From the IMG/VR virus record IMGVR_UViG_3300031414_000001, positions 240,437-304,436 of that record: a stretch of DNA of 64,000 bases, one strand, 5' to 3'. A model generated the notes under the pieces. It did no database searches. It had not been told where the DNA came from and worked only from the letters and a program-made list of their open reading frames with translations. Numbering within the stretch: the stretch's first letter is position 1; each line of letters begins with the position of its first letter. This document shows positions 31,418-50,394 of this stretch, in pieces. The DNA comes from a virus (Duplodnaviria; Heunggongvirae; Uroviricota; Caudoviricetes). The position numbers and the translations under genes were made by a program.

Positions 31418-31559
31418 ATTGCTACCCTCCGTGCGATTCACCATGAACCGCTTCGATGTAATAATAGTACTACACACCAATAACGAAAGCAAGTACTATT
31501 TTATAAAATGCAAAAGAAAAAGCCCCAATTAAGGGGCTTGATTTATTCAGTACTTTGTG

Positions 31560-32429: not shown

Positions 32430-32438
32430 AGTGTTACC

Positions 32439-32633: not shown

Positions 32634-32855
32634 TTAAAAGTACTCCCTCGTTTCGATACAATAATAGTACTACACACCGAGCCATCACGCAAGGAATTTA
32701 TTCAAAAACTTTTCCTTGACAACGCCGCTCTGTTCCCCTATAATTACTACATAGACGCGAGAAAGCGGAAACCCCAGGGGGTGGCAAAATGTATCTATAG
32801 GTTAGAAAGCTGTATATAAAAACAGTACTGGATATTTCACCAGTACTTTATGTTT

Positions 32856-33155
32856 TTAGCTGAAAATGTAACGTGATCCGCCGAAGTAATCAACGTTGAC
32901 CATAACAGCTTTATCTGTTACAATCGTGTGTTGCGTAGTCCAGCCAATCAGGTTAGTACCATCGAATAAGGCCATATGACCATAACCATATTCGACCAGT
33001 GCTGTAAAGTCGCCTTTTTCTTCAACGACACGCCAGGCATAGGGGGAACCGTCTTTCAGCCACAACGCACAATCTGAATAATCAGGACTGAGCTTATGCT
33101 CTTTGTCAGAAAGTACTTTTGCGACTTCTGCCATCAGTACTGCTAACTTATCCAT
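32856..33155 (-). CDS. hypothetical protein (99 aa; start at MDKLAVLM, GAGAGGATAGACAA RBS)
   Basis: The track ORF's MLIECEYFIM prefix duplicates the 31050-31100 leader sequence. Confidence 0.45.
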   Translation of the reverse strand: MDKLAVLMAEVAKVLSDKEHKLSPDYSDCALWLKDGSPYAWRVVEEKGDFTALVEYGYGHMALFDGTNLIGWTTQHTIVTDKAVMVNVDYFGGSRYIFS

Positions 33156-33233
33156 TTGTCTATCCTCTCGCTTAATGTGTAACTTCATTATAAAGTACTC
33201 GCATTCAATAAGCAAGTACTTTTGATAATGATT

Positions 33234-33422
33234 TTACGCCGTGCGGATCACTGTGATATTAGTATCAATATCAATTGATGTTCCCACTTCCAGATCGATG
33301 ATAGCACACAATTCATCGTTGGTCAAATCTGGTACAGTACTGATAACATCCAGGAGATTTAACCGATGATCAGTGTTATCATCGTTGCCGATAGTGTATT
33401 CACGTTTGACCATCTGGATCAT
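33234..33422 (-). CDS. hypothetical small protein (62 aa)
   Basis: Intact ORF. Confidence 0.35.
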   Translation of the reverse strand: MIQMVKREYTIGNDDNTDHRLNLLDVISTVPDLTNDELCAIIDLEVGTSIDIDTNITVIRTA

Positions 33423-33628
33423 GCCGGAACCTCTTGCGTCGATTCTTCCCAGGAAGATTTAACCATCGGCGTTTGCCCGCTTTTTTTCCAACGGGCAATC
33501 TCTTGCTCCGCGTCGTGGCGTGTATCATGTGCTGATACATACGTACCGCAAAAACGAATTACGAATTGCTTTTTCGGTGCACCAGTAAACTCACCTGCTA
33601 CGTTGTAACGACGATCTTTTTGAGCCAT
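33419..33628 (-). CDS. hypothetical small protein (69 aa)
   Basis: Intact ORF with 4-nt overlap. Confidence 0.4.
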   Translation of the reverse strand: MAQKDRRYNVAGEFTGAPKKQFVIRFCGTYVSAHDTRHDAEQEIARWKKSGQTPMVKSSWEESTQEVPA

Positions 33629-33715
33629 GATAACTTCCTCTTAATTAATGGTTATTGCGTTTCAGTAAGTTCATTATATAGTACTCGCAGAAGAAAGCAA
33701 GTACTATTAATGGAT

Positions 33716-33952
33716 TTACAAAGAAATAACTTTGTGATACTCGCCATGCGTCAAATCAGACACATATACTTCATTGCTGTTATTCAGCTTTTCAGTACTG
33801 GTGATCACGTTGCCGTGATACGTTTCATTCGCCCAGGTTTGGATCTGCTGGCTGACTTCTTCCAGATTGTCAGATCCTGCCAGTACTAACAGTTTATCAG
33901 ATCCAGCAATCGCCGTGCCAGTACTGCTTACAATGACTTCGAATTGTGGCAT
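33716..33952 (-). CDS. hypothetical small protein (78 aa)
   Basis: Intact ORF. Confidence 0.4.
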   Translation of the reverse strand: MPQFEVIVSSTGTAIAGSDKLLVLAGSDNLEEVSQQIQTWANETYHGNVITSTEKLNNSNEVYVSDLTHGEYHKVISL

Positions 33953-34224
33953 GATATATCCTCTTAATTAAATTCAACAGACAACATTATAACAATAAAG
34001 ATAAACAAAAGAAACTCTACTTTACGACTCATTTCTTTACCCTCGTTTGCCCTTCCATGTAATACATATTACCAGATTCAAAAACAAAAGCAAGTACTTT
34101 TTATGATTTAATTTATAACTTTTTTTGAACGGATCTTGCCACCCTATAGGGTTAGTCAGTTTCGCCTGATTGATAACAGTATAGCAAAAAGGGATTGAAC
34201 TTGTCAACCCCTAATTTTAGTACT

Positions 34225-34530
34225 TTACAAATCACGCACCGCTGTAGTATGCGTAATGTATGGGGCAGAACCGCCGATCAATTCTACCTTTGCCATCAGG
34301 GATATATGATCCCCTGCTGTTGGTAATGCTAACGCTTCCTGTACTGTGATCACTTCACCGAAAGAGTACTGATATTGTACAAAGGCTAACCAGGTATTAA
34401 AGATCTCGCCCGGTTTCCATCCGTGCTGTACTAAGCACACATTATCAATTACAATCGGTTTACCTGTATGATCTCTCGTAGTACAGGTATAAGTAAATGC
34501 TTTCGCGAAGTTATCAATGTTATCAGACAT
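34225..34530 (-). CDS. hypothetical protein (101 aa)
   Basis: Intact ORF downstream of a conserved leader module. Confidence 0.45.
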   Translation of the reverse strand: MSDNIDNFAKAFTYTCTTRDHTGKPIVIDNVCLVQHGWKPGEIFNTWLAFVQYQYSFGEVITVQEALALPTAGDHISLMAKVELIGGSAPYITHTTAVRDL

Positions 34531-34771
34531 TTTCTAATGTTACCTTAAGAGATTGTGTCATACGATTTCGCATTGCTTTTAGTACCATGCGACACGCTAA
34601 CACTTTGCCTTTATCATCCAGACGTTTAAAGCCTGGCCGTTTCATTGTATGGGATTGTAATTGAGTCCAGTTATCGACCCTTTGCCCCTTGCGATAGATT
34701 ATACAATGAATCTTGTCAGAAGTACAAGTAAAAATTACAACTAATCTTTTAGTACTATAGAATAGATCCAT
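34523..34771 (-). CDS. hypothetical protein (82 aa)
   Basis: Intact ORF. Confidence 0.4.
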   Translation of the reverse strand: MDLFYSTKRLVVIFTCTSDKIHCIIYRKGQRVDNWTQLQSHTMKRPGFKRLDDKGKVLACRMVLKAMRNRMTQSLKVTLENV

Positions 34772-34819
34772 AAAGCCCCTACAACACGTTTTAAGAGGGG
34801 GTATATTGCCCCCTATAGG

Positions 34820-35197
34820 TTACACGTCTACAGTATCATAAACATTACCTGATGCGATCCAGACGCTGAATTTTGGCATCTTATCCCATTCAGCCATAGT
34901 CAGACCGAGATCGTGGAGAACGTTAGTATTTGCCATACCTGGTACATTGTGAGCAGTACTGTACAACTTTCCATTGTACTGATACGCTAAACACATTTTA
35001 TGCTGATTGACAACGCACAACATAGAAGTAATCAGGGTAGTACAGGCGAAACGTTCCCGTACTAATGACAATTCAGTACTGATGCGTTTATTCAATCTGT
35101 CAACTTCTTTATTACATTCAGCTTTTGTTTTCCCCATCATTTCGATATGGGAAAGTGCACCTACAATGTCAGCCTGGATTGTGAAGATCTTATTCAT
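34820..35197 (-). CDS. hypothetical protein (125 aa; start at MNKIFTIQ, AAAGGAGTAAACC RBS)
   Basis: The internal Met has an excellent SD. Confidence 0.45.
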   Translation of the reverse strand: MNKIFTIQADIVGALSHIEMMGKTKAECNKEVDRLNKRISTELSLVRERFACTTLITSMLCVVNQHKMCLAYQYNGKLYSTAHNVPGMANTNVLHDLGLTMAEWDKMPKFSVWIASGNVYDTVDV

Positions 35198-35388
35198 GGG
35201 TTTACTCCTTTCGTTTAGTGTGAATACATAGTAAGTCATTACAGCAGTTAAAGCAAGTACTATTTGAGTTTTAATTTATAATATTTTCTGGATAGATCTC
35301 GCCACCCTATAGGGTTAGTCCATTTCTCTGGAGTGATTACATAGTACTATAAAAGGGATTGAATAGTCAACCCCTCTTTTGTAAAGAT

Positions 35389-35571
35389 TTAAACTTCTTT
35401 CCAGCGTCCATTATAGAACGTATGCGTTTCAATATACATGTTGTTAATGTTGCTGATATATCCTACACTATCAGCAGCCCGCCGTGTAGCAGCATTCTTT
35501 GCCCCACGTTCGGACTTTGCCTGGATAGGGTAAGCCTTACTACCGATCCCGATTGCGTATTGTTTAGCCAT
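35389..35571 (-). CDS. hypothetical small protein (60 aa)
   Basis: Intact ORF. Confidence 0.35.
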   Translation of the reverse strand: MAKQYAIGIGSKAYPIQAKSERGAKNAATRRAADSVGYISNINNMYIETHTFYNGRWKEV

Positions 35572-35749
35572 GCTTCACCGCCTTGATTGCGTTAACCGCA
35601 ATAATTCCTTTACATTCGCGAGGCAAACGGCATTCACATAACCAACGGGAAATACCGCCAACATAACGAGCCGTAGGGCATTTGTTCGCGTTCTCCTGAG
35701 TGAACAAAGGCCATTCAACATTACCCCAGGTAGGTCTAACAGTTTTCAT
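35564..35749 (-). CDS. hypothetical small Cys-rich protein (61 aa)
   Basis: Intact ORF; CxxxxxxxxxC..CxC pattern. Confidence 0.35.
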   Translation of the reverse strand: MKTVRPTWGNVEWPLFTQENANKCPTARYVGGISRWLCECRLPRECKGIIAVNAIKAVKHG

Positions 35750-35826
35750 TTTTAAAACCTCGTTTGCTTAAGTGATAACTCATTGTAAAGTACTTGCCAG
35801 GATTAAGCAAGTACTTTCGAAATGAA

Positions 35827-36213
35827 TTATAGATCTTTTTTGCGTTTTACGTCTGCCAGGTTTTCAGATACTGGAATATCATGTTCACGACAAAAACGGG
35901 ATAACGTGCCACAATCAGGAACTGGATAAGTACAGGCAGCATCGAACAACGCCAGGGCAGTTTGATCGAAACAACGCTCATAGCCATATTGGAATGTATC
36001 TTGTGCCAGGTCGATCCACACTGTACCATCTTCTAACGGGCGATTGTACACGTTCGCTACAAGCTCGTTAGCACGTTCTACAGGCACCAGGACGCTAACA
36101 TATACAGAATGATATGTGTTACCATCACCACGGTTAAACCAGCGTTTCGCGGTCATAGTGACGGCGTGAACATCGGCCAGGTTAACAGTACTGAAAATAG
36201 TTCTATTGGTCAT
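35827..36213 (-). CDS. hypothetical protein (128 aa)
   Basis: Intact ORF. Confidence 0.45.
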   Translation of the reverse strand: MTNRTIFSTVNLADVHAVTMTAKRWFNRGDGNTYHSVYVSVLVPVERANELVANVYNRPLEDGTVWIDLAQDTFQYGYERCFDQTALALFDAACTYPVPDCGTLSRFCREHDIPVSENLADVKRKKDL

Positions 36214-36220
36214 AATAATC

Positions 36221-36391
36221 TCACTTAATGTTATTGGCTGCTACAAAGTCAGGGTGTTTAGATTCAAACCACTGCATGACTTCTATTCTATCAGTACCTA
36301 CACCGAAGTGCAAGAACTCTTTTTCGATTTCATCATCATTGTTAACGGGAACCAATGAGAACAATTCCCACAACTTCAATAACTCCGCCAT
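36221..36391 (-). CDS. hypothetical small protein (56 aa, below ORF-track cutoff)
   Basis: Reverse complement reads GGAGTAAACAGC-ATG MAELLKLWELFSLVPVNNDDEIEKEFLHFGVGTDRIEVMQWFESKHPDFVAANNIK. Confidence 0.4.
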   Translation of the reverse strand: MAELLKLWELFSLVPVNNDDEIEKEFLHFGVGTDRIEVMQWFESKHPDFVAANNIK

Positions 36392-36486
36392 GCTGTTTAC
36401 TCCTGAGTGATTACCCTATACCGCTTATTATACAGATTACTCATTTACGATCAAGTACTATCTCGTTTTAATTTACTTTATTTTAA

Positions 36487-36512
36487 AACAAAAAATGCCC
36501 CTCGATCTAGGG
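36487..36512. terminator. bidirectional-looking hairpin terminator (GCCCCUcgaucuAGGGGC)
   Basis: 6-bp GC stem flanked by an A-run upstream and an AT-run downstream. Confidence 0.45.
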
Positions 36513-37072
36513 GCATTAATTGGTGAATAAGGTTTCCTTTCAGAACGTCTATAATGGCACTAATGCGATTATAGAACTTCACACCTACGCGGCAATTTAA
36601 TATAAGTAGTTTGTTTATAAAATTGAGTACCGGATAATCTTTCAGTACTAACCACAATCACCCTGTAGATGTGCTTTCGCTTTGTGGTTCCTGGTATAGA
36701 CTTACCTTGTGTGCTATACGTCTTAGGGTTCTACGTACTGCCACCAGGATATCAGCCTGATGGTTCAAATCTTAACTCCTTTGGCGGCTCGCCGTGTCGT
36801 TTCGATGTAGCTATATTATCATAACCAGCGAACCGATCAAGCGATTTAATTACTTTTTTTCGATTCTTTTTCCTTGCTTTTCTTTTTCAGTACTGGCATA
36901 ATATCTACATACCAGCGAAATGGGAGACTCTAGAGAGTGGCAAGTTGCGTCTAAAATTTATATAAAAAGCAATGGACGGATCTTGCCACCCTTTTGGGTT
37001 AGACCATTTCGCTGGATTGATAGTACTTTAACATAAGGGGCTAACCGAAGTCAACCCCTGTTTTGTAAAGAT

Positions 37073-37414
37073 TTACATTGCTTCGATGACTAATTTTAAT
37101 TCATATGAACTAAAATGTTTCTTGAATAATTGTTCAGCCTGGGCTTTACTTTCGGCGTCAATTATGATTGAGTCTTCACCGCGATCCGTGCCGTAGGTTA
37201 TCGCGAACCCACGACGCACGATTTCTTTTGTTGGCAGGTGAATAGTACCGTTACGCAACAATTGCCCTTCTGGATCATTTGCGATTGCCTGGAGATCTAC
37301 TTCAACGTAAAGTTCATCGTTGAACAATTCCACAATCGGATCAATGTTCCCTCTTTTGTGTGCGATTTGTTCCAGTTGGAAAAGTACGCCTTTCAGTTCG
37401 CTTAATCTCATCAT
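37073..37414 (-). CDS. hypothetical protein (113 aa)
   Basis: Intact ORF. Confidence 0.45.
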   Translation of the reverse strand: MMRLSELKGVLFQLEQIAHKRGNIDPIVELFNDELYVEVDLQAIANDPEGQLLRNGTIHLPTKEIVRRGFAITYGTDRGEDSIIIDAESKAQAEQLFKKHFSSYELKLVIEAM

Positions 37415-37493
37415 TTTCGTTTTGCTCCGTTGGTTGGTGTGATTACATAGTACTATAAAGGGCTTGAAACAGTCAAGCCCTAAATTGTAAAGA

Positions 37494-38156
37494 TTATAAC
37501 TTTTCTAACGCTTCCTGAATCCGTTCCTGTAAGTTAGTCGTGACAATGTTTTCCAGTGTCAGATCGTCCGGGTAGTTAATATCTGAGTTTTCCAGTACTT
37601 CCCCCAGGGTTGGATCTTCCTGTACAATCAAGGCCGCCAGGTTAGGCCAAATTTGATTATACTCAAAATCCAGAACATCCCAGACGGCTTCCTGTACTGA
37701 ATCACGCCATTTCATTTCTGATAACGCAAGGTTATAGTAATGTTCATACATGGTAACAGTGATCGGCGTTTCCATCTTCTGGCGGTAGTACTGAATCAGA
37801 CGATCCACCAGCTTGATCCGGTTCGCACCGTGGATCGTGTCGTCGTCGTACAAGTTACGCTGAGCAGTGTACGCAATACGCATATGATCGCGATTGTCGT
37901 TACTCATACCCTCCACCGGATAGGCATTATCTAAGCCCATTTCTTCAAAGGCATCACACAAAAATTCCCAACCGATCCCTGTTATGTTGTGGTCCGGCGT
38001 TTTGGCGTATACATGCCAGCAAATGCCGAAAGAAGTAGTAAGGTTAAACGGCTTACCTTTAACATTAGTGTAAGTCTCGCCACGGTCTAAACAATCTTTC
38101 ATTTGTTCCAGTACTTCCAGAACCATTCTATATTGCTCTAACTTAAATAAGTTCAT
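37494..38156 (-). CDS. hypothetical protein (220 aa)
   Basis: Long intact ORF. Confidence 0.5.
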   Translation of the reverse strand: MNLFKLEQYRMVLEVLEQMKDCLDRGETYTNVKGKPFNLTTSFGICWHVYAKTPDHNITGIGWEFLCDAFEEMGLDNAYPVEGMSNDNRDHMRIAYTAQRNLYDDDTIHGANRIKLVDRLIQYYRQKMETPITVTMYEHYYNLALSEMKWRDSVQEAVWDVLDFEYNQIWPNLAALIVQEDPTLGEVLENSDINYPDDLTLENIVTTNLQERIQEALEKL

Positions 38157-38296
38157 TTTGTTTTCCTCTCGTTTCGATAAGTTCTATTATCCATATTCGA
38201 ACGAACTATGCAAGTACTAATTTACTTTTTTGATGCAAAAATAAAACCCCTTCTAAAACGCTCTGTAACGAGTTCTAAGGGGTTTTATATGTTAGC

Positions 38297-39410: not shown

Positions 39411-40379
39411 AATATGTACCTTCTTAAAAGTGATTGATTAATTTGTTTGTCTGATTCGCTCTTGCGTTTCAGTGATTACATCTTACTACGTTTCGTTTCT
39501 TTCGGTCAAGGACTTTTTCAACTTTCTAGAAACTTTTTTTCGTTTCATCTCCAGGCGGTAGATAGGACGCTAACAGTTAGTTAGCCTTTATAACGCTACG
39601 TTGCCTTTGTCGGTCATACGCTGTAACAGTACTATCTATTCTAGCCCTGTTACCGTTTCCTATCATCCGGCGAACCTTACCGCCTTTCGATGATTGACAT
39701 TCTACACTACTCAATCTAGCAGTCAAGTACTTTCTCAAATCTTTTTCGCGTTTCCGCTTAAGTCATTGTTTCAGTACTGAATGCCAGGTTTTTAAAGAGC
39801 GGTGTTTCGTGTCGTTGGAGCTATACTATCATACAGAACGAACCATGCAAGGACTTTTTCACTTTTTCATTAAAATAGTTTCGTTCCTCGCTTTCCTTCA
39901 TTATATGCACTTCCTGGTTCCTGTATCGAGTTCTAAGCCCTTTAACAGTACTAACATACACATTCACCAGGGATCGAACTACAAACGCTTAAACGGCTTT
40001 ATATTACGTATAAGGAAGGGCTAAAAAGTTTTGTAAAGATTGTAGAAAGTACTGGACAGCAGATCCCGAATAAGGCATAATAACTACATAGACGCGAGAA
40101 AGCGGAGACCCCAGGGGGTGGCAAGTTGCGTCCAAAATTCGTATAAAAAACTACAGACGGATCTTGCCACCCTCTAGGGTCGCCCATTTCGCTGGTGTGT
40201 GGATATAGTACTATAATCCGGCCAGGTCTGTCAAATTTATTTTTATTGAAAAAAGTACTTGCATTCGTCGCTCAGTATGATAATATAGCTCTGTCAACAC
40301 GAAAAGACAGCTTTCGATTCTGCCTGGTACTAACCAGACGCGGAAGGGGAGCTAATGGAAAAATGACAGAAAAAAACCA

Positions 40380-40520
40380 TTTAGCCGTCTAAACGTCTAG
40401 CCATCTAGACGGATAGCCATCTAGCCTTTTAGCCGTCCAGAAGGATAGCAGTCTATACGTCTATACATCCAGCTATCTACACTTCCAGAAGTCTATCCAT
40501 CTTCTGACAGCAGACGGGAT
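40380..40520. repeat. iteron-like array of about 10 direct/inverted copies of AGCC(A/G)TCTA / GTCTA(T/G)
   Basis: ttagccgtctaaacgtctagccatctagacggatagccatctagccttttagccgtccagaaggatagcagtctatacgtctatacatccagctatctacac... Confidence 0.6.
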
Positions 40521-40730
40521 TGATCCGTCTATCGAATACCAATACAGTACTGTAATTGTATCTGTATCTTGGACTCTCTCAATTAAAATTTAACAGTACT
40601 GACACTATACTCTCTAGGGTAATATCTACCGTACAAAAATATAATGCCAGTACTGTCGAAGTGCATCAAGTGCTACTCAAATACGCTTAGTACTCAATTT
40701 CCTAAGCAACGCAAGAAAGGAGGAAAAACT

Positions 40731-40802
40731 ATGAACACGAGGGTTCAAGTCACCAGGCAGTCTACACCAACCAGGCTAGGCTTCAGTACTGGCAGCTATT
40801 AA
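40731..40802 (+). CDS. 23-codon mini-ORF with perfect RBS (MNTRVQVTRQSTPTRLGFSTGSY)
   Basis: AAAGGAGG 7 nt upstream of ATG, inside an otherwise ORF-free 2-kb region. Confidence 0.35.
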   Translation: MNTRVQVTRQSTPTRLGFSTGSY

Positions 40803-41426
40803 CCACCTCCTGAACCATGTGTGTATATTACCGTACCACCAGCCAGAACGCAAGGACTTTCTTCAACTATTTTCATAATACTCTAGTACTGTAAATGTAT
40901 CCAGTACTGTACATATACACATGGGTGCTGGTGGTTCGAACTTTAGTTACAACATCTTATTCTATATTCTTTCGAAGATAGTCTAGTACAGAAATGATTT
41001 CGAGTACTATTGAGATTTAGGCTGGAGGTTCAAAGGTACTTCAAAATTTCTAGGATCGAGATTTAGGATAGAGTACTTTCCAGATTTTAGCTGAAGTGAG
41101 TTCTGGTTTTTTCAGTACTGAGATTTCCGTTCGACTTCAGGAACAGATATAGCGGAAGGGGGTTGACCAGTACTGGCAAGGGATGTTACAGTACTGGAGT
41201 GTACACTGTATGTATCTTCAGTACTGATAACTTATACATAATGTAGATTTTTACAGTACTGTATATTAATACATGGAATATCGCGAACGCTATTTTAGCT
41301 AGTTTGAATCCTTTCGATATCGCAATAGCGATACTACAGGAATCAAACACATGGCGTATAGAGCGTTCTAGGAGGTTCTAAGGGGTGTTTGAGATAGGTT
41401 TGTAGTACTGTTCTATATAGGTAAAG

Positions 41427-41438
41427 TGGGTAAATACT
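41427..41438 (+). promoter_or_regulatory. GGGTAAATAC motif (candidate late-type promoter) 33 nt upstream of first tagged gene
   Basis: gtGGGTAAATACtg. The same motif precedes genes at 47061, 48313, 59446 and (as GGTAAATTA) the SPFH gene. Confidence 0.4.
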
Positions 41439-41471
41439 GATAAGAATTTTTATTATAAGGAGATAAAAGGT

Positions 41472-43502
41472 ATGTTACCCTTTCCAATATTAAACTACTA
41501 TGGGAATAACATTGTACCTCCAGTAAAGACAATAGAAAGATTTTCAATATCCTCCAATGGTTCAGGAGTACTGTTACATTATGCTAATGGTGATTTATAT
41601 GCTTTAGGAACTAACACTGCTGGTAAGTTTGGTACAGGTGATACTACGAACATAACTGGTGCTTGGAGACTCATAGCTAGTAATGTACGTAAGTATGTAT
41701 GTTCTCATAACTTCACTATAATCATACACAATGATGGTTCAGTTCAGTACTCAGGCAATGTGAGTAATATTTTCACGTCAGCATTAGGATATTCATTTAG
41801 TACTACGAATGTGTTTACTGACATGAGTTCGGCGTTTAGTTCCTTTGATGTTCTAGGCATTAAGTCCTTAGAGTCTATGGAAGATTCAGGATATAGATTT
41901 TGGCTAATTGATAAGAATGATGTGTTATGGTGTATTGGTTCTAATCAGTACTACGCATTAGGTAGTTCTTCTAGTCTTACTACAACGAATTGGGTACAGG
42001 CAGTTAATGGTACTAATGTCGAAAGAGTTATGCCTGGATTACAATCAGTATGGATTAAGAAGAAAGATAATACGTACTGGAGAGCGGGAACTAATGCTTA
42101 TGGTTTATTAATGAGTAGTTCAGCTTCACAGACATATACGACATTTACTGTACAGAATTCATATGCCGGTACAGCGGCGAATAACACTATACGGAATCTA
42201 ACAGTAACTCCATACAACATGTATATGAATTTAGAAGACGGTTCAGTACGTATCTATGGTGTAAGAAACTCTGGTCAGACAGGTACAGGAAGCACAACTG
42301 GTACGGCATTGATTCCAGATAATCCATCGGGAACAAGTGGAGTTCTGAAGTTACTGGATAGTACTGGTTCGTTTTACAGTTCTTATTTGGTTGGGCCGAA
42401 TGGATTATTGGTAGCAGGTCAAGGTACTAATAACATGTTTGGTTTAGGTACGGGGGCATCTCCTACAACCTTTACGTTATCTAACACAGGTGTAATGACT
42501 AATTTAGATTATGCTAATTTAGATTACTTGAACTTCGTTACATCTAATGCTGGGTATGCTGTAATTGGTGGGGAAGTATATACTGCTGGTAATAGTGCTT
42601 ATACATTAGGTGCTACGTCATATATTACGTGGACATTGATGAATACACCACAGAGTCAGTTATGGGGAACATCAGGAATGGTTAGTACTATAACTAATGC
42701 TTCGACTACTTCTCCGACAATGACTAGATATTCTCACAGCAGATGTAGTTATGGAGATGATAAGTTCATTATCTATGGTGGATATAATGGTTCGACGATT
42801 TTTAATGATATTAACATTTACGATGGTACTACAGGAACGTGGAGTACTGTACCAGTGACGGGAACTACGAAGGCATTATTTGGTGCAGGTATTACTACTA
42901 TTGGTGATACGATGTATGTCTTTTGTGGTAACAGTACTACCTCGACTACGACGAACACGATTTATTCAGTTAATTTACTTACTGGAGATTGGACTACGAT
43001 TACGCCGAGTGGAAGTACTATAAGTGCTAGATCGCATGTACGGGCGTGTACTATAGGAACTATGATATACATATGGGGTGGTGAGAGTGTTAACACATGG
43101 TTCTCATTTAATCCGGTTACGAATGTAGTAGCTTCTATGCCTACATCGCCAGTAACATCTAGTATTGATGCGGATATGGTTACTGATGGTAAGGATATAT
43201 TTGTTAACATTGGTACTACGGCGTTTTACAAGTACAGTACTAGTAAAGCTGCTTGGATAGTACTAGCTAATAAGAATAATGCGGCATTGAAGCTCGCATA
43301 TAGTAATGGATATATCTATGGTTCTATGGCGGGGAATACATTCTTGTTCGCATATAAGGTCAGTACTAACATATGGACGCAATTACCTAATCCTTCATTG
43401 ATTAGTACTAGTCGTCATTGTTTAGCATCAGCGGCGGGTAAGGTTGTGTATACGGGTGGTATAGCTAGTACTAACAGCAATAACTGTTTTACAATAACAT
43501 AA
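41472..43502 (+). CDS. MLPFPxL-tagged RCC1-like + Kelch-like beta-propeller protein (676 aa)
   Basis: N-terminal tag MLPFPILNYYGN. RCC1-type GxNxxGxLGxG blades (GTNTAGKFGTGDTTN, GSNQYYALGSSSS). C-terminal Kelch-like blades (RYSHSRCSYGDDKFIIYGG, RSHVRACTIGTMIYIWGG). Confidence 0.75.
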   Translation: MLPFPILNYYGNNIVPPVKTIERFSISSNGSGVLLHYANGDLYALGTNTAGKFGTGDTTNITGAWRLIASNVRKYVCSHNFTIIIHNDGSVQYSGNVSNIFTSALGYSFSTTNVFTDMSSAFSSFDVLGIKSLESMEDSGYRFWLIDKNDVLWCIGSNQYYALGSSSSLTTTNWVQAVNGTNVERVMPGLQSVWIKKKDNTYWRAGTNAYGLLMSSSASQTYTTFTVQNSYAGTAANNTIRNLTVTPYNMYMNLEDGSVRIYGVRNSGQTGTGSTTGTALIPDNPSGTSGVLKLLDSTGSFYSSYLVGPNGLLVAGQGTNNMFGLGTGASPTTFTLSNTGVMTNLDYANLDYLNFVTSNAGYAVIGGEVYTAGNSAYTLGATSYITWTLMNTPQSQLWGTSGMVSTITNASTTSPTMTRYSHSRCSYGDDKFIIYGGYNGSTIFNDINIYDGTTGTWSTVPVTGTTKALFGAGITTIGDTMYVFCGNSTTSTTTNTIYSVNLLTGDWTTITPSGSTISARSHVRACTIGTMIYIWGGESVNTWFSFNPVTNVVASMPTSPVTSSIDADMVTDGKDIFVNIGTTAFYKYSTSKAAWIVLANKNNAALKLAYSNGYIYGSMAGNTFLFAYKVSTNIWTQLPNPSLISTSRHCLASAAGKVVYTGGIASTNSNNCFTIT

Positions 43503-43511
43503 GGAGAGAAT

Positions 43512-44612
43512 ATGTTACCATTTCCAATAATGAATCAGTACGGTAATGAAGTAGTTTATCCTGATGTGATAAAGAAGCTCAGTACTGGTCAGAACAACAC
43601 AGGGTTATTAAAAACTAATGGTGATTTTTACATACAAGGATTAAACAACGTAGGGCAAAGTGGTACAGGTAATACTAATGATGTAGTTAACTTTACTAAA
43701 GTGGATTCTGGTGTTGCTGATATTAGTGTAGGGTACAATACTTCCTTTTATAGAAAAGGTACTAACCAGATAATGGGTACTGGAGTTTTCAGTTATATAG
43801 ATGGAACAGTGCAAAAGAATACATGGACACAAATCAATTCATTGTTTACATCACTTAGTGTATCTTTTGAATTATTTTTAGATATAAGAACAAGTAGTTC
43901 AGGTTTGTTCGTATTGTACAATGGAAATTATTTGTACTGTCGTGGTTCAAATACAAATGGTGATTTAGGTGTTACTTCGAACACTAGTACTTGGTCATTA
44001 AGTGCTACTGATGTAAAGGAAGTTCATTGTGGGTATGAGTGTAGTTACATATTAAAGACTAATGGTGATTTATATGCTTCAGGTACTAACAGTAGGGGGC
44101 AATTAGGCACAGGTAATACTACTCGTTCAAATACTTGGATACTAATACAGCAGAATGTATTACAAGTTTATGCTGGTTTTTATAATCTAATCATTGCTAA
44201 GAGTGATGGGCTATATGGTGTAGGTGCTAGAGAGAATGGATTGTTAGGTGATGGTTATACCAGTTCAACAGCATCAAATCAATTAGGTTTTGTAAAATTG
44301 AATATTCCCAATGGAAGTTATAATTTAGGACGCGGTTTCATTTACAGTTCAGGAAACGCGGTACTGGATACTGGTGTTGCTTATGTATCTGGGGTTAATG
44401 CTGCGGTTGGTGGTGCTGGGGCGAATAATGGTTTATTCACACAAGCACAAGGAACATTACCAATGAACTTAAAAGGATTAAATTTAATGGCTAATGGTAT
44501 ATTAGTACATGATGGTACGGATATATGGGGTTCTGGTAATGGACGATTACTACCTGGATATGGTTCAGGAACTTATACAACCTTTGTAAAATGTACAATG
44601 CCAACTACATAA
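43512..44612 (+). CDS. MLPFPxL-tagged RCC1-like beta-propeller protein (366 aa)
   Basis: Tag MLPFPIMNQYGN. Repeats GLNNVGQSGTGNTN, GSNTNGDLGVTSN, GTNSRGQLGTGNTT, GARENGLLGDGYT. Coupled via TAAGGAGAGAAT-ATG. Confidence 0.75.
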   Translation: MLPFPIMNQYGNEVVYPDVIKKLSTGQNNTGLLKTNGDFYIQGLNNVGQSGTGNTNDVVNFTKVDSGVADISVGYNTSFYRKGTNQIMGTGVFSYIDGTVQKNTWTQINSLFTSLSVSFELFLDIRTSSSGLFVLYNGNYLYCRGSNTNGDLGVTSNTSTWSLSATDVKEVHCGYECSYILKTNGDLYASGTNSRGQLGTGNTTRSNTWILIQQNVLQVYAGFYNLIIAKSDGLYGVGARENGLLGDGYTSSTASNQLGFVKLNIPNGSYNLGRGFIYSSGNAVLDTGVAYVSGVNAAVGGAGANNGLFTQAQGTLPMNLKGLNLMANGILVHDGTDIWGSGNGRLLPGYGSGTYTTFVKCTMPTT

Positions 44613-44622
44613 GGAGAGACAG

Positions 44623-45129
44623 ATGTTACCTTTTACACAATTATTGGTTTATGGAAATACTGTAATTAGAAATGAATATAATATGTTTGTTTCTGAATTA
44701 ACTTCAAATAGTACAAATAAGTCCGTAGTTTATAATCAATCATACAGTGCTATAAATGGAACTACATATAATAGAGTTTATATGTATAGTACTGCTGCAC
44801 TATCAGGCACATTATGGGGAACACCATATGGTAATAAAATGACATGGGATAGTTCATTTTGTAGAGTTATACAACATGCGTTTCCTACCCAGGCATTATA
44901 TAGTGATTTTATTGCTAATCCTGGTAATCGAGTTGTATGTTTAGTTCGTTCAGCAACGGCGAGTGGGAGTGGGTATGTATCATTATCCAGAAATGGATAT
45001 ACAAGTTCATCATATGGATCATTTACTGGTTGTACTGTAACACAATTTATATATTTTGATCCTGTTACACAACGTGTTATGACATATAATCCTAGTACTG
45101 TTAGTACTCCAACATTTTATTACACATAA
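44623..45129 (+). CDS. MLPFxQL-tagged small protein (168 aa)
   Basis: Tag MLPFTQLLVYGN; TAAGGAGAGACAG-ATG coupling; no propeller repeats. Confidence 0.6.
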   Translation: MLPFTQLLVYGNTVIRNEYNMFVSELTSNSTNKSVVYNQSYSAINGTTYNRVYMYSTAALSGTLWGTPYGNKMTWDSSFCRVIQHAFPTQALYSDFIANPGNRVVCLVRSATASGSGYVSLSRNGYTSSSYGSFTGCTVTQFIYFDPVTQRVMTYNPSTVSTPTFYYT

Positions 45130-45140
45130 GGAGAGAATGG

Positions 45141-46307
45141 ATGTTACCATTTCCACAATTATTAGATTACGGGAATACTGTTGCTCCACCAGCACCAATT
45201 AAAAAGATACAAACATATTCGAACTCAGTATATGTTTTAATGTCCTCTGGACAATTATATGTTCGTGGATTTAATAGTTCAGGTCAATTAGGTATAGGAA
45301 GTACAGCAACAGTAACCACATGGACATTGAGTACTATACTAGTAGATGATGTATGGGTTGGTGGTAGTGCGGCTTTAATACGTAAAATGGATGGTACTTA
45401 TCAATTCACTGGCAATAATACAAATGTAGGAAATGCTAATGGAACCAGTACTACAACATGGGCTACATGGACTGTTAAGAATACATTAACATCAGGAATA
45501 GTAGATATTGCTTTGAGTTCTCAAAGCATTAGTGTACTGTTAGAAGATGGAACTATTAAGTCGGCGGGTGTTGGTACTAATGGACAGTTAGGTAATAATA
45601 GCACAACAAACAATATAGCTGGTTCTTTTGTAAACAGTACTATACCGAGTGGTATTACACCTGTTTCATTACTGGCTGGTAATACGATGCATGGATTCAT
45701 TGGGAACAATGGTAAGTTGTATCATACTGGTATGGTTAATGCTACTAATACTGTTAGTCCCGGTACTACAACATATCTGGTATATACATTGAATCCAGCT
45801 ATTGGTACTAATACTGCTTTATCATACATGAATAACGCTAATGGATTAGCTATGGGTTTGATTAGAACTCCAGCTAATGTTGTTCGAATGTATTTTGGTG
45901 GTTCAAGAATATTTGGTCAAATGGCAGATGGGGTTAATGGGAACTTATCTAACATTAAAGCTTTTGGTGATTTTACTGGAACTCCATATCCATCAGGAAC
46001 TATTCTTGGTGTAAGTACTGGTTATTCGTATTATGCTCAGATGGTTATTACGAGTACTGGAATATTTGCGGCGGGTCGTAATACTGGAGATCAGTCTGGT
46101 GCTTTAAGTACTGGAATCGCATCAGAAGCATTGACCTATACAGCATGTGTATTACCATCTAGTTTTGATACTACTAATGCGAAAGTACATATGTGTTTAA
46201 GCAGAACGTACTTAACTGATGGTAATTATCTGTATAGTTCAGGTACATATGTTACTTATGGTGGTCCAAGTAGTACTACGTTTACATTAGATGATCCAAG
46301 ATTTTAA
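45141..46307 (+). CDS. MLPFPxL-tagged RCC1-like beta-propeller protein (388 aa)
   Basis: Tag MLPFPQLLDYGN; repeats GFNSSGQLGIGSTAT, GVGTNGQLGNNSTTNN. Confidence 0.7.
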   Translation: MLPFPQLLDYGNTVAPPAPIKKIQTYSNSVYVLMSSGQLYVRGFNSSGQLGIGSTATVTTWTLSTILVDDVWVGGSAALIRKMDGTYQFTGNNTNVGNANGTSTTTWATWTVKNTLTSGIVDIALSSQSISVLLEDGTIKSAGVGTNGQLGNNSTTNNIAGSFVNSTIPSGITPVSLLAGNTMHGFIGNNGKLYHTGMVNATNTVSPGTTTYLVYTLNPAIGTNTALSYMNNANGLAMGLIRTPANVVRMYFGGSRIFGQMADGVNGNLSNIKAFGDFTGTPYPSGTILGVSTGYSYYAQMVITSTGIFAAGRNTGDQSGALSTGIASEALTYTACVLPSSFDTTNAKVHMCLSRTYLTDGNYLYSSGTYVTYGGPSSTTFTLDDPRF

Positions 46308-46317
46308 GGAGAGAGAA

Positions 46318-46971
46318 ATGTTACCATTTCCACAATTAGTTCAGTACGGTAATGTTGTTCAGACCGCATTGATGGATATTGATTTTAATAATAGTACTGT
46401 TGGTAGTACTGTAATTACAGATATTGGTGGACATGTATTCACTAAGATTGGTACAGGTTCAGCGGTAGTAGTTAATGATGCTACAAAGGGGAATGTGATG
46501 CAATTCAGTGGTTCATCATATTTTACAACACCTATGGTTCAAAATATATCTTTAAGTAATTTACATTTCAAGATGCGATTAGTATTCAAGAGTACAGTGT
46601 CATCTGAGAACATGGTATTCAGTACTGGAGATTATTATTCTAGTGGTTCAATAGTAGGTGGTATATTGCTTACCTTATTCAATAACACTGGTTCTCAATT
46701 ATTCTGTACTACAACATCTGGTGTATTCACTCGTTGTCAATTCACATATGTAGTTAATACATGGAGAGATTTAACGATAGAATGGATACCTACAACAAAG
46801 ACAATGATTATACATGATAATGATTCTAACACTAACGTGTTTAGTGGTACTGTTCCTGGTGGATTTGGTGATGGTACACAATTTGCGATTGGTGCTAGTT
46901 ATGTTCGTGGGGCTGGTAATGCTAATTTCCAGGGACAAATACAAAAAATACGTATTGATGCTGTACTATAA
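46318..46971 (+). CDS. MLPFPxL-tagged ConA/LamG-like lectin-fold protein (217 aa)
   Basis: Real start at MLPFPQLVQYGN (the track ORF starts 27 nt earlier). C-terminal ...FAIGASYVRGAGNANFQGQIQKIRIDAVL resembles the LamG/ConA-like F.G.I.E.RI signature. Confidence 0.65.
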   Translation: MLPFPQLVQYGNVVQTALMDIDFNNSTVGSTVITDIGGHVFTKIGTGSAVVVNDATKGNVMQFSGSSYFTTPMVQNISLSNLHFKMRLVFKSTVSSENMVFSTGDYYSSGSIVGGILLTLFNNTGSQLFCTTTSGVFTRCQFTYVVNTWRDLTIEWIPTTKTMIIHDNDSNTNVFSGTVPGGFGDGTQFAIGASYVRGAGNANFQGQIQKIRIDAVL

Positions 46972-46983
46972 TAGTACTCAAAT

Positions 46984-47012
46984 AAAGCTCAACTTAGGTT
47001 GGGCTTTTATTA
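46984..47012 (+). terminator. rho-independent terminator (AGCUCAAC-UUAG-GUUGGGCU + U-tract)
   Basis: Hairpin followed by TTTTATTATTTT. The same CAAC-UUAG-GUUG hairpin type recurs at 48238 and 61806. Confidence 0.6.
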
Positions 47013-47060
47013 TTTTCGTGGGTAAATACTTAATTAATATTTTAAAAAAAGGAGTTTCTA

Positions 47061-48236
47061 ATGTTACCATTTCCAATATTAAATCAATACGGTAATGAAG
47101 TAGAAGTGCCAGTAGTAAAGTTTACAACATCTGAATATAGTTCAACCTATTCTATTCTTAAGAATGGTGTTCTATATTTGAGTGGGGATAACTCAATGTA
47201 TCAGATGGGTGATGGTACAACCACTAACAAATATAATACATGGATTAAAAGAACTGAAACAGAGGAAATAATAGCTTGTAGTACTGGTTATCGTCAAACA
47301 GTATATGTTACTAAAACTGGACGAGTTATGTTAACTGGCACAGATATAACAGTGAATCCTAATGTGGTTCGAACATCGTGGTATAATATCACATCAGTAC
47401 TAGCAAGTGCTATAGATACAAGTGCTATCAAATACATTAGCATAGATCGTAATGGTTTATTAGCTATTCTTACAGATGGTACAGTATGGGGTACTGGTAC
47501 TGATAATAGTGGATGGATGGGAACTGGTTCAATACCTTCAGCGTTCTTATCAATGCGTCAGATACATCCAGGTCCAGCAGTAGCATGTACAGCGGGTACA
47601 GGTGTAGCTCGAATAGTACTACAAGATGGTACAATTTTAGGTTCAGGTAATAATACATCGTATCAAATAGACAGTACTGGAGTTAATATCAGCACCTTTA
47701 CTAATTCATTCCCTACAGTAGATCCTAGTACAATATATCAATTTAAACTTGGTAATAATAATTGTATTGTCTTTTTAAACAATGGAACATTTCATAGTAC
47801 TGGTATGGGTTCTTTTGGAGCATTAGGAAATAATAATACAGCTTCAACTGGCAATAATCAGTACTACACAGGAACATTATCATTTACTCCTGCTGATATG
47901 CGACAATATCGACATTTACAAGGTTCAAGTGCTAGTGGATGGTCATTAGTATTATCAAGCACAAATGAAATGTATGGTTGTGGTTATAATGGTGGAAATT
48001 TAGTATCTAACAGTGTACACTATGGTGTGTTTACTAAATGTGTACAAACGAGTACATATCCTAATATGATGTTTTTATCTGGTTCAGGAAACACAGTACT
48101 GATAAATCCATATCTAATTTCTCCTACTTCAGTACAACTTATTGCCAGTTCTCCTAAAGCTACAAGTCCATATGCTCAATCATTAACACCAGCATTAGGG
48201 CTTACTACTGCTGTTACGGTTACATTACCAACATAA
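47061..48236 (+). CDS. MLPFPxL-tagged RCC1-like beta-propeller protein (391 aa)
   Basis: Tag MLPFPILNQYGN; repeats GDNSMYQMGDGTTTN, GTDNSGWMGTGS, GMGSFGALGNNNTAS. Preceded by terminator + GGGTAAATAC motif (47030-47039). Confidence 0.7.
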   Translation: MLPFPILNQYGNEVEVPVVKFTTSEYSSTYSILKNGVLYLSGDNSMYQMGDGTTTNKYNTWIKRTETEEIIACSTGYRQTVYVTKTGRVMLTGTDITVNPNVVRTSWYNITSVLASAIDTSAIKYISIDRNGLLAILTDGTVWGTGTDNSGWMGTGSIPSAFLSMRQIHPGPAVACTAGTGVARIVLQDGTILGSGNNTSYQIDSTGVNISTFTNSFPTVDPSTIYQFKLGNNNCIVFLNNGTFHSTGMGSFGALGNNNTASTGNNQYYTGTLSFTPADMRQYRHLQGSSASGWSLVLSSTNEMYGCGYNGGNLVSNSVHYGVFTKCVQTSTYPNMMFLSGSGNTVLINPYLISPTSVQLIASSPKATSPYAQSLTPALGLTTAVTVTLPT

Positions 48237-48237
48237 G

Positions 48238-48268
48238 AAAAGGCTCGACTTAGGTCGGGCTTTTCTTG
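48238..48268 (+). terminator. rho-independent terminator (GGCUCGAC-UUAG-GUCGGGCU + U-tract)
   Basis: Hairpin then TTTTCTTGTTT; followed by the GGGTAAATAC motif at 48276-48285. Confidence 0.6.
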
Positions 48269-48312
48269 TTTAAGTGGGTAAATACAGTAATAAGATTCTA
48301 AAAGGGGGATTT

Positions 48313-50385
48313 ATGTTACCATTTCCACAATTAGTCGTGTATGGAAATACAGCTCCTATTCCAGGAATAGGAATAAAAAGAATGAGCAATACACAACAAG
48401 GTACTGCTCAGATGTTACAATATTCGAATGGTGAACTTTATGCTCTTGGTGCTAATACTAATGGTAAGTTCGGATATGGTGGTGCTGGTGGTGAGACTAT
48501 AACAACTTGGACACAGTTAAGTACTGGTGTTCGTTTATATTCACTAGCACAACAAACAATGATATTAATAATGAATGACGGTACTGTTAAAGGTAGTGGT
48601 TCATTAAATAATATCTTTAGTGCTGCTACAGGTGGTGCGATTGCGAACAGTACTTCATTAGTAGATATTACTGACAGGTACAGTACTTTTAATATCCCAG
48701 GTATTAAACAAATTGTTCAGTACGATACACAGGTTCGTCAATACTTGATTGATGAAAACAATCAGCTATGGGGAATGGGTACAAGAACTTCATATGTGTT
48801 AGGTAATAATACGAACAGTGGTAGTACTAGTTGGGTTCAGATTGATAATGGTGATAATTGTCAAGAGATACAATGTACGGCACAGGGATTATGGATCAAA
48901 AAGATTAATGGTACATGGTGGCGTTGTGGTACAAATGGTAGTGGTTGTTTAGTAGGTGCTGCGGCATCGACAACTTATACAACATTAACACAATTCACAG
49001 ATTTTGCTAACTTAGCAGATGTAAGTGTATTGAGTAGCAGTTTAATGATTAGATTAACTGATGGTACAATGCGTTTCTATGGTACACAGTACTGGATAAA
49101 CAGTGTTGGAGTTACTTTTACTCCGTATACCCCTACAGTTTCTGGTGTATTCGCTATGAATATTTCAGAAAGTTATCTAGGGAACTTCCAAGCAATAACA
49201 ACTCCTAATGGAATTATGGGAGAGGGTACTAATGGTGGCGGTTCATTAGGTATAGGTAATACTTCTAATGCATATGCTGGAACATGGTATGCAAGTATAG
49301 GGGTATTCACAGACCCATCAAATACCGCATTAGATACTTCTAAAATTAAATTCTTGTGCACAGGAAACAACTCAGGATTCTTTGCTTATGAAGATGAAGT
49401 ATATGTGAGTGGTTCAGTAGGATATACACAAAGTGGTGCTGCTAGTAATGGTTTCTGGCAAGTACAGAGAACTCCTAGAAGTGCTATCTGGTCAGCGGCA
49501 GATAATCATCCATTATTATCAGGTACAGTAACCAATCTCAGTTCCGCTTCACCTGTAATGAATAGATATGGACATGCTACAGCAGTATGGGGTAAAAAGC
49601 TATTAGTTAATGGTGGTATTATTAGTTCTTCCGCATTTGCTGATACGGGTGAAATTAATATCTATGATACAGAAACTGGATTATGGAGTTCTATAGCTAA
49701 TACTACATCTATCACTAGATACGCACATGCGATGTGTGTTATAGGTGATGTAGCTTATATTTGGGGTGGATATACTTCTCCTAGTGGTGGAACAAATACA
49801 AATACTATGTATTCTGTTAACTTGAATACGGGAGTATGGACAAATTTAGCTCCATCAAATAACATAACCTTTGGTGCTTATGCAAGAATGGTTAGTACTA
49901 ATGATGGTATGATCTATATGTGGGGTAGAGATATTGGTACACAAATGTATCAGTACAATCCAACCACAAATTCGTTTGTTACAAAAACATCATCAACGTT
50001 CGCTGCTGCTGGTCCTGGTGGTAGTGGTGTATCATTAACTAATGCTGCTGGTGCAGGTTTTTGTACTGATGGTACTTATATGTATAACTGTACTGCTGTA
50101 TCTCAAATGGCAAAATATGATCCAACATCAAATACATGGAAACAATATCAAAGTAAAACTACCGGGGCAGTTGGTAAATGTTCTTTCTTAAATGGTGTTC
50201 TGTACTGTATTATAAACAACACACTATATTCATATAGAATTAGTACTGGTGTATGGACAACCGGTGCGGCTTCATTAATGCCTGGTACAAGAAACGCTGC
50301 TTCAATGGAAGCAATAAATGGTGCTTTGTACTATATTGGTGGTCAAGGTACATCAAGTACTGATAATTTTTACAAGATTCAATAA
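48313..50385 (+). CDS. MLPFPxL-tagged RCC1-like + Kelch-like beta-propeller protein (690 aa)
   Basis: Real start MLPFPQLVVYGN after AAAGGGGGATTT RBS. RCC1 blades (GANTNGKFGYGGAGG) and Kelch blades (RYGHATAVWGKKLLVNGG, RYAHAMCVIGDVAYIWGG). Same architecture as 41472..43502. Confidence 0.75.
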   Translation: MLPFPQLVVYGNTAPIPGIGIKRMSNTQQGTAQMLQYSNGELYALGANTNGKFGYGGAGGETITTWTQLSTGVRLYSLAQQTMILIMNDGTVKGSGSLNNIFSAATGGAIANSTSLVDITDRYSTFNIPGIKQIVQYDTQVRQYLIDENNQLWGMGTRTSYVLGNNTNSGSTSWVQIDNGDNCQEIQCTAQGLWIKKINGTWWRCGTNGSGCLVGAAASTTYTTLTQFTDFANLADVSVLSSSLMIRLTDGTMRFYGTQYWINSVGVTFTPYTPTVSGVFAMNISESYLGNFQAITTPNGIMGEGTNGGGSLGIGNTSNAYAGTWYASIGVFTDPSNTALDTSKIKFLCTGNNSGFFAYEDEVYVSGSVGYTQSGAASNGFWQVQRTPRSAIWSAADNHPLLSGTVTNLSSASPVMNRYGHATAVWGKKLLVNGGIISSSAFADTGEINIYDTETGLWSSIANTTSITRYAHAMCVIGDVAYIWGGYTSPSGGTNTNTMYSVNLNTGVWTNLAPSNNITFGAYARMVSTNDGMIYMWGRDIGTQMYQYNPTTNSFVTKTSSTFAAAGPGGSGVSLTNAAGAGFCTDGTYMYNCTAVSQMAKYDPTSNTWKQYQSKTTGAVGKCSFLNGVLYCIINNTLYSYRISTGVWTTGAASLMPGTRNAASMEAINGALYYIGGQGTSSTDNFYKIQ

Positions 50386-50394
50386 GGAGAAAAC

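Follow-up and report, generated by a model that had tools for sequence, protein, structure and literature searches.

Chi, the DNA uptake sequences of Neisseria and Haemophilus, and KOPS are over-represented functional words that occur about once per 1-5 kb, are asymmetric, and depend on orientation. In Bacillus phage SPO1, the preferred sites of the abundant DNA-binding protein TF1 lie over early promoters in the long terminal repeat, and TF1 reads DNA that contains hydroxymethyluracil, at a limited set of places. Cyanobacteria carry the highly iterated palindrome HIP1, GCGATCGC (Xu, Lawrence & Durand 2018, PMC5861425; Elhai 2015, PMC4390886), for which a periodicity of 10-90 kb has been reported. 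The nucleoid-occlusion factor SlmA of E. coli binds a 12-bp palindrome, GTGAGTACTCAC (Tonthat et al. 2011, PMC3020112), in which G1, T2, A4 and G5 are required and position 3 must be a purine. Here we describe the palindrome AGTACT in 64,000 nucleotides of a Caudoviricetes genome (IMG/VR record IMGVR_UViG_3300031414_000001, positions 240,437 to 304,436), which we call the window.

AGTACT occurs 291 times in these 64,000 bases, or about once per 220 bp, while 100 dinucleotide-preserving shuffles gave 23.2 ± 5.0 copies with a maximum of 34 (z ≈ 53). It is the top hexamer of the window by frequency, with a zero-order observed/expected ratio of 13.8, and the next most enriched hexamers, CAGTAC and GTACTG, are words that overlap it. 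An initial annotation, made from the letters alone, had described the word as over-represented genome-wide and had put the expectation at 20-40 copies per 64 kb. The over-representation is borne out and the expectation was right (21-23). Under a maximal-order Markov model, which takes in the window's own enriched 5-mers, 247 copies are expected (z = 6.9), and the excess in such models is hierarchical, with z = 13.5 for GTAC, 15.9 for GTACT and 6.9 for AGTACT.

Most of the sites (231) lie within genes, as defined by a crude gene call that yielded 115 genes and 88% coding sequence. Shuffling synonymous codons within each gene left 53.7 ± 6.5 sites (z = 27; 4.3-fold fewer), and permuting codons left 26.9 ± 4.9 (z = 42; 8.6-fold fewer). 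The genic sites are split among the three frames as 116, 39 and 76, compared with 27, 11 and 16 in the synonymous shuffles, so that each frame shows a 3.6-4.8-fold excess. The initial annotation had named a score near zero, once codon usage and dinucleotide composition are controlled, as the outcome that would speak against enrichment; the scores were 27 with synonymous and about 53 with dinucleotide shuffling. The dipeptides Ser-Thr and Val-Leu are themselves inflated (169 against 99 expected and 174 against 105, respectively), and 116 of the 169 Ser-Thr pairs are spelled AGTACT, where codon usage predicts 24. The remaining 60 sites fall in 7.6 kb of non-coding DNA, at 7.9 per kb compared with 4.1 per kb in coding sequence. 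The excess reflects selection, or drive, that works on the DNA itself and not through codons or peptides, and the enrichment is a DNA-level effect.

Among words of the form NGTACN, AGTACT is enriched 13.8-fold and words with one outer position altered are enriched 2.1-4.2-fold, whereas variants that break GTAC stand at about 0.6-1.9-fold. Such a gradation is expected if selection acts on binding energy. The initial annotation had spoken of a hexamer or an octamer. The hexamer stands, but the octamer CAGTACTG accounts for just 65 of the 291 sites and is not the unit. At position -1, C is found in 47% of the sites and G in 5% (a four-fold depletion), and the mirror positions behave alike. G is avoided at -1 in all of the relatives discussed below (6-12%), and the preference is partly the general NAGT bias of these genomes, in which CAGT exceeds GAGT. 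The flanks hold 0.24 bit of information at -1 and at most 0.05 bit per position beyond ±1 (in genes). The selected unit is essentially the hexamer AGTACT. Gaps between sites are near-Poisson: 31 are 30 bp or shorter (37 expected) and 15 are 600 bp or longer (19 expected). We therefore reject regular, nucleosome-like or helically phased spacing.

The best megablast match of positions 40000-48000 is Erwinia phage Kaldavass (84% identity), followed by Xanthomonas phage XbC2, Pectobacterium phage CBB, Serratia phage BF and the Yersinia fHe-Yen9 phages. All of these are RaK2-like jumbo myophages of 350-380 kb, and by these matches the window is from a RaK2-like jumbo myophage that is nearest to Kaldavass. 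We compared AGTACT counts in samples of 40-50 kb per genome (43 kb for Kaldavass), a check in related phages that the initial annotation had proposed. The observed/expected ratio is 14.3 in the early region of Kaldavass, 11.4 in the early/RCC1 region of 121Q, and 6.0-7.1 in structural regions of XbC2, BF, CBB, GAP32, RaK2 and Munch. Thus, all nine of the enterobacterial-clade genomes that we sampled (the window included) share the trait, at 6-14-fold. In contrast, the ratio is 0.1 in PA5oct (Pseudomonas) and 0.2 in Atu_ph07 (Agrobacterium), which are relatives on other hosts, and 0.5 and 0.7 in the other coliphages T4 and T5. The enrichment is a trait of the enterobacterial RaK2-like clade rather than of enterobacterial phages at large, and since T4 and T5 are unenriched, we reject a general host-driven effect. 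The early region and the terminal repeat carry a site about every 220 bp; in relatives, the late regions that were sampled carry one about every 430 bp. A sample of E. coli K-12 has 11 sites in 50 kb (12.6 expected), and the density in this phage is about 20 times as high.

The individual sites are also conserved. Between the window and Kaldavass (88% identity), 99 of 121 sites (82%) are kept, as compared to 57% of control hexamers of the same composition; in the other direction, 99 of 114 Kaldavass sites (87%) are kept in the window. Between CBB and more distant genomes, the proportion of sites kept is 71% for GAP32 (controls 41%), 48% for BF (26%), 52% for XbC2 (27%) and 41% for Munch (15%). 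AGTACT sites are thus conserved 1.5-2.7 times better than control hexamers, and at depth they turn over while density holds at 100-120 per 50 kb. This shows that individual AGTACT sites are under purifying selection. That sites are maintained one by one argues against pure mutational replenishment and against self-eroding recombination hotspots. A recombination hotspot, which the initial annotation had listed among its explanations, is a poor fit if it erodes its own site, as these sites are conserved well above background.

AGTACT stands out in another way, as the sole enriched palindromic hexamer of the window. Of the 64 palindromic hexamers, 26 have no copy in the window, and nearly all of the absent ones contain at least 4 G/C. 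The tetramer GCGC is missing from the window altogether, where 88 copies are expected from composition and 68 ± 6.5 remain after synonymous shuffling. The absence of GCGC and of G/C-rich palindromes is common to every enterobacterial RaK2-like phage that we sampled, while GCGC is normal in PA5oct, Atu_ph07, T4 and T5 and occurs about 7 times per kb in E. coli. The phages of this clade look unmodified and strongly shaped by palindrome avoidance, which makes the one positive exception more striking.

The initial annotation drew attention to positions 40540-41440, the longest non-coding stretch in the window, as an extreme cluster with about 20 copies of the word. We count 15 exact AGTACT sites there; the others that were listed are GTAC variants. 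These are the densest 900 bp of the window (P = 2.6e-5 relative to the window mean), but the significance shrinks to P = 0.037 when the reference is non-coding DNA of the early region next to it, at 9.8 sites per kb, so the cluster is mostly a long non-coding stretch at non-coding density. It is notable for its location rather than its density. By comparison with relatives, we mapped the physical end of the genome, which is the boundary of the terminal repeat, to 41149/41150, between ...ggaacagata and tagcggaagg... (conserved as CCCCTTCCGCTA followed by TATCYGTTCCTGAAGTC). The annotated repeat of CBB starts at this junction (355,924 in that genome), and the start and end of the XbC2 record join there. 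The right end of the Kaldavass record matches positions 1-22.8 kb of the window and its left end matches 22.8 kb onward. The terminal repeat runs toward lower window coordinates, into minus-strand early genes, and the cluster lies across this left end of the genome, which had escaped the initial annotation, with 10 sites inside the repeat (30-598 bp from the end) and 5 outside it (19-254 bp from the end), beside a near-invariant block at 41221-41390. Several of the cluster sites are kept in a three-way alignment of CBB, XbC2 and the window. AGTACT density peaks at the injected genome end, and moving inward from the end, the order is the 10 sites, an array with an 8-bp period, and the first early promoters.

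What could maintain this word? A sequence-specific reader acting on the phage's own DNA, which the initial annotation had put forward as a DNA-binding or DNA-modifying system, remains the best class of explanation, be it by binding or by modification. Within this class, we tentatively favor the view, which we hold to be quite possible if somewhat short of probable, that AGTACT is the docking word of a clade-specific, probably phage-encoded, homodimeric protein that binds double-stranded DNA and loads along the phage genome. A symmetric dimer would read the symmetric word, and its binding would mark or organise the phage DNA, by compaction, protection or distinction between self and host. With sites at the -10/+1 of early promoters and flanking the -35 of a second promoter class, occupancy might also modulate early transcription, and the protein could load first at the 10 sites that lie within 600 bp of the injected end.

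Several observations weigh against a docking word. The near-Poisson spacing lacks the phasing that is expected of a regular array. The scant flank information resembles a strict restriction-modification-type site more than it resembles the 14-20-bp operator of a helix-turn-helix dimer. By extrapolation, each genome has about 1,000-1,600 sites, mostly genic, and a tight binder might obstruct transcription and replication. The symmetry of AGTACT also means that strand data formally leave room for a role at the RNA level. Finally, no AGTACT-binding protein was identified in family-library scans, which covered part of the roughly 115 window proteins; a Pharokka-style annotation of the near-identical region of Kaldavass lists almost only hypothetical proteins.

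The docking word might also be half of a two-word system, in which AGTACT is a "self" tag that is read by a phage protein and the absence of GCGC exposes the host alone. The host alone may then be open to a GCGC-directed phage nuclease or to silencing, with word content replacing base modification in these unmodified relatives of T4. We regard this as an unlikely, though not far-fetched, elaboration. If true, it would be the first such viral device for distinguishing self from non-self, and a tractable model for the function of iterated palindromes.

The alternative that survives best, which we consider possible without thinking it likely, is an iterated palindrome linked to a methyltransferase, as has been discussed for HIP1. 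AGTACT or GTAC would be the target of an orphan DNA methyltransferase of the phage, and either the mark has a genome-wide function (strand discrimination, timing, packaging or self-marking) or methyl-directed repair acts as a ratchet that turns near-cognate sequences into sites. This alternative stays alive because a strict 6-bp palindrome has hardly any flank information around it. Also, one-off variants differ mainly at the outer positions and keep GTAC, as reported for the inner methylase site of HIP1 (PMC4390886), and at about one site per 220-430 bp, AGTACT is comparable in density to GATC in E. coli (189 copies in the 50-kb sample). The site-level conservation instead favors selection over neutral replenishment, as was argued for HIP1 (PMC5861425). 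A ratchet of the very-short-patch-repair type is not supported, as the deamination neighbors AGTATT and AATACT are undepleted (83 against 67 expected).

As to which enzyme might be responsible, the initial annotation had found nothing in the window that was obviously assigned to the word, and so it overlooked a Dam-type N6-adenine DNA methyltransferase of 181 amino acids on the minus strand (9271-9816; PF05869, E = 5e-28). No other sequence-specific DNA-modifying enzyme is annotated in the window, and this one is present in every AGTACT-rich phage that we examined, at 43-100% identity. Nevertheless, it is a weak candidate, because its nearest characterised relative is specific for GATC. The enzyme shares 49% identity with genes located in the packaging region of the lactococcal 936-group phages Phi109 and 3R07S, and M.Phi93DAM from lactococcal phage Phi93 was shown experimentally to make G6mATC. 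From position and description, we infer that the three lactococcal-phage genes (of Phi109, 3R07S and Phi93) encode the same type of enzyme, so the window's enzyme probably targets GATC and not AGTACT. Equally close homologues are found in small phages of Gram-positive bacteria. The clade has a second candidate in an N4-cytosine methyltransferase (gp157 of CBB; PF01555, with M.PvuII as its best solved relative). We found it only in Mimasvirus, Eneladusvirus and the Kaldavass group, and not in RaK2, 121Q or Munch, which are equally enriched. Given this mismatched distribution, it is not supported as the reader of AGTACT and cannot explain a clade-wide trait.

A signal for replication or recombination seems improbable to us. 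The word could be a start site for a gp61-type primase, or a target for nicking or cutting that seeds recombination-dependent replication. An enzyme specific for a hexamer would require numerous sites on the two strands. A palindrome would suit both strands alike, sites are about as dense as frequent priming or nicking would require, and the clade encodes a T4-type primase-helicase, UvsX and many HNH endonucleases. To our knowledge, however, characterised phage primases read trinucleotides and not hexamers. Furthermore, conversion that is initiated by breaks tends to destroy its hotspots, yet AGTACT sites are conserved, and such a signal gives no reason to expect the excess in promoters and at the genome end.

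It is very unlikely that a host protein reads the word, either SlmA, with a block to cell division, or LexA. The enriched phages infect, or were isolated with, Enterobacterales, and the Pseudomonas and Agrobacterium relatives are unenriched; on the other hand, T4 and T5 grow on the same hosts and show ratios of 0.5 and 0.7, and XbC2, which was isolated on Xanthomonas, is enriched. AGTACT forms the central six bases of the SlmA site (PMC3020112), but the flanks that SlmA needs are lacking or disfavored: GTRAGTACTYAC has no match in the window, GT is not enriched at -3/-2, and 5% of the sites have G at -1. We therefore reject SlmA. As for LexA, its half-sites TACTG and CAGTA stand back to back within CAGTACTG, and LexA-like boxes cluster at the genome end. 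LexA needs CTG, however, and a flanking C/G is present in only 40-47% of the sites, while the invariant center is unread by LexA, so we reject it as the reader of the genome-wide word. The LexA-box-like 20-mers, which match TACTGTATATATATACAGTA at 15-17 of 20 positions, start at 26033, 27209, 32808, 40887, 40905, 41204, 41239 and 41257. The last five are at the genome end (40887-41276) and each shares CAGTACTG with its neighbor; the first three are between early genes, beside ATAAAT-type sequences. Perfect CTGT-N8-ACAG boxes number four in the window, two among these eight 20-mers and the others at 15440 and 31597. We view the boxes at the genome end as a separate, local curiosity.

The last alternative, that AGTACT is nothing more than a promoter or transcription-start element or else a by-product of codon use, dipeptides or amplified repeat cassettes, is scarcely credible: about 25 of the 60 non-coding sites do fall in two families of repeated promoter-like cassettes, and the sites peak modestly 25-75 bp upstream of start codons, but 231 of the 291 sites are genic and use all three frames, and the 4.3-fold and 8.6-fold excesses over synonymous shuffles and codon permutation, together with the 6-7-fold enrichment in structural regions of relatives, refute it as a complete explanation.

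The two cassette families bear on a claim from the initial annotation that AGTACT is the conserved +1 element of the early promoters. In the 14 promoter-like sites of the TTGAC type, AGTACT follows just after the -10 hexamer in 3 and overlaps it in 2, so the claim is only partly true; it does not extend to the word as a whole, as promoters cannot explain a word with 231 of 291 sites inside genes. In the other family, which is of the AGTACTTGCTT type, AGTAC abuts the -35 position and a second AGTACT is often found in the spacer. Overall, promoter-embedded AGTACT takes at least 4 different positions and 79% of all sites are intragenic. As the word is not fixed relative to -35 or -10 and is mostly intragenic, we reject it as a fixed element of sigma-70-type promoters.

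The AGTACTTGCTT-type family comprises 12 promoter-like cassettes on the minus strand at 23650-38220 (copies at 23698-38218), with the form (A/T)AGTACTTGC(T/G/A)T, 14-17 nt, and TATAAT. Their sequence suggests a second, activator-dependent class of promoters in the early region. The TGCTT core of these cassettes recalls the MotA box of T4 middle promoters. In many of the 14 TTGAC-type sites, the -35 lies inside a terminator hairpin. The terminator-promoter cassettes, also on the minus strand, are at 24748-24771, 26488-26511, 28558-28581, 28984-29007 and 34190-34212 (AGGGGTTGAC...GTTAGCCCCT TTT); the -35 TTGAC is within the stem-loop of a hairpin that resembles an intrinsic terminator, and the -10 is in its T-tail. 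Downstream of TTGAC-type early promoters is a repeated leader of about 50-60 nt that contains ATCAATCCAGCGAAATGGACTAACCCTATAGGGTGGCAAGTTGCGTCC, with minus-strand copies at 26087, 27273, 28518, 34149, 35312, 36996 and 40176 (7 copies against 0.05 expected). The leader includes a small hairpin, and its copies may represent a common 5' RNA element.

Two further elements lie near the genome end. The tandem array with its strict 8-bp period (40361-40540; about 18 units, AGCCGTCT / AAACGTCT / AGCCATCT / AGACGGAT ...) is 610-790 bp inside the end. It is not built of AGTACT and is kept in CBB and XbC2, and positions 40158-40520, which include most of it, are about 79% identical to BF, the pEa_SNUABM phages and Yersinia phages. 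We consider the array a candidate element for packaging or terminase recognition, for an injection stop, or for an origin. Separately, its units resemble the "metbox" repeats of MetJ (AGACGTCT). The near-invariant non-coding block at 41221-41390, just outside the terminal repeat, is 91.6% identical to CBB, and it contains the inverted repeat TATCGCTATTGCGATA and ends with the conserved ACAGTACTGT. It might be a packaging signal, an origin or a small RNA; the block has no match to Rfam or to tRNAs, and neither scan gave a match anywhere in the window.

Up to about 40.4 kb, the minus-strand genes are small, mostly hypothetical and of early type. From 41.47 to 53.65 kb the genes are on the plus strand, and thereafter on the minus strand again. 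The plus-strand segment holds an array of RCC1-repeat or Kelch-like proteins (41472-53654, with another plus-strand stretch at 59446-60084) that share the N-terminal peptide MLPFPQLVxYGN... The database name "DNA condensation" for these proteins rests solely on the RCC1 label. AGTACT occurs at 4.9 per kb in the array, like the remainder of the window.

Other words also have unusual frequencies. The Chi octamer GCTGGTGG is present in 16 copies on both strands of the window, where 0.56 are expected, which is a host-like density (3788, 6863, 23982, 24487, 24906, 28908, 29122, 30053, 30587, 31988, 37805, 40836, 40927, 45186, 48484 and 60439). Chi is co-oriented with transcription, with 11 copies on coding strands versus 1.4 ± 1.1 in synonymous shuffles. 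It is also enriched in Kaldavass, 121Q, BF, XbC2 and CBB, weakly in RaK2 and GAP32, and not in Munch. TGCA and TTGCAA are strongly depleted in the window, Kaldavass and XbC2 (observed/expected 0.3; 1 TTGCAA against 21 expected) and about two-fold enriched in BF, CBB, GAP32, RaK2 and Munch. GATATC, ATCGAT and CTTAAG likewise differ between lineages. These differences suggest that restriction history varies among lineages of the clade.

Searches of the open literature for AGTACT, CAGTACTG or ScaI together with these phages returned no report of the enrichment, and the paper on the CBB genome, which describes three promoter types and three methylases, makes no mention of the word. For three decades, iterated palindromes like HIP1 have gone unexplained in organisms that do not lend themselves to quick manipulation. 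A signal of this kind is now at hand in culturable phages of E. coli, Klebsiella, Erwinia and Salmonella. Because it is stronger per kilobase, shows selection at the level of sites, and is confined to one clade with unenriched relatives as controls, it is experimentally tractable. It is also relevant to the question of how 350 kb of DNA is organised, protected or marked in jumbo phages that have neither modified bases nor a phage nucleus. As for applications, AGTACT and the lack of GCGC are sharp signatures of the clade in metagenomes, and they predict many ScaI fragments and no HhaI sites.

We return to the known systems. AGTACT is a target of the ScaI type (AGT^ACT): the same 6-bp palindrome, read with strict hexamer specificity and little dependence on flanks. 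Phages normally lose restriction sites, and here 26 other palindromic hexamers are lost, but AGTACT is 14-fold enriched. A site that is enriched instead of depleted does not fit an avoided restriction-modification target, and no restriction-modification-type enzyme specific for AGTACT was identified here. SPO1 resembles this phage in having a module of early genes in its long terminal repeat; unlike in SPO1, no HU-like gene was found in the window, and AGTACT runs through the whole genome. Like Chi, KOPS and the uptake words, AGTACT is genome-wide, is kept dense by selection or molecular drive, and could signal "self" DNA. Unlike them, it is its own reverse complement, and so has no orientation, and it is 5-20 times denser.

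The SlmA site (Tonthat et al. 2011, PMC3020112) has an identical central AGTACT, is a palindrome, is found in many dispersed copies on one replicon, and is read by a dimeric helix-turn-helix protein. In the phage, though, the SlmA flanks are absent or disfavored, and the sites are far denser than on the E. coli chromosome.

The closest system is HIP1. Both HIP1 and AGTACT are short palindromes that are more than ten-fold over-represented, in genes in every frame as well as between genes. For both, sites are conserved beyond background between related genomes and one-off variants differ mainly at the outer positions, and for both the role is debated, between nucleoid organisation and a process linked to a methylase. 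AGTACT differs in being a hexamer instead of an octamer and in belonging to a virus instead of a cellular chromosome. It is also denser, at one site per 220-430 bp, whereas HIP1 saturates at about 1 per 1,000 nt, or more than one motif per gene in some genomes (Elhai). And unlike HIP1, it is set in a genome that is otherwise purged of palindromes. AGTACT is a viral, hexameric and denser case of a HIP1-like iterated palindrome, in a palindrome-stripped genome.

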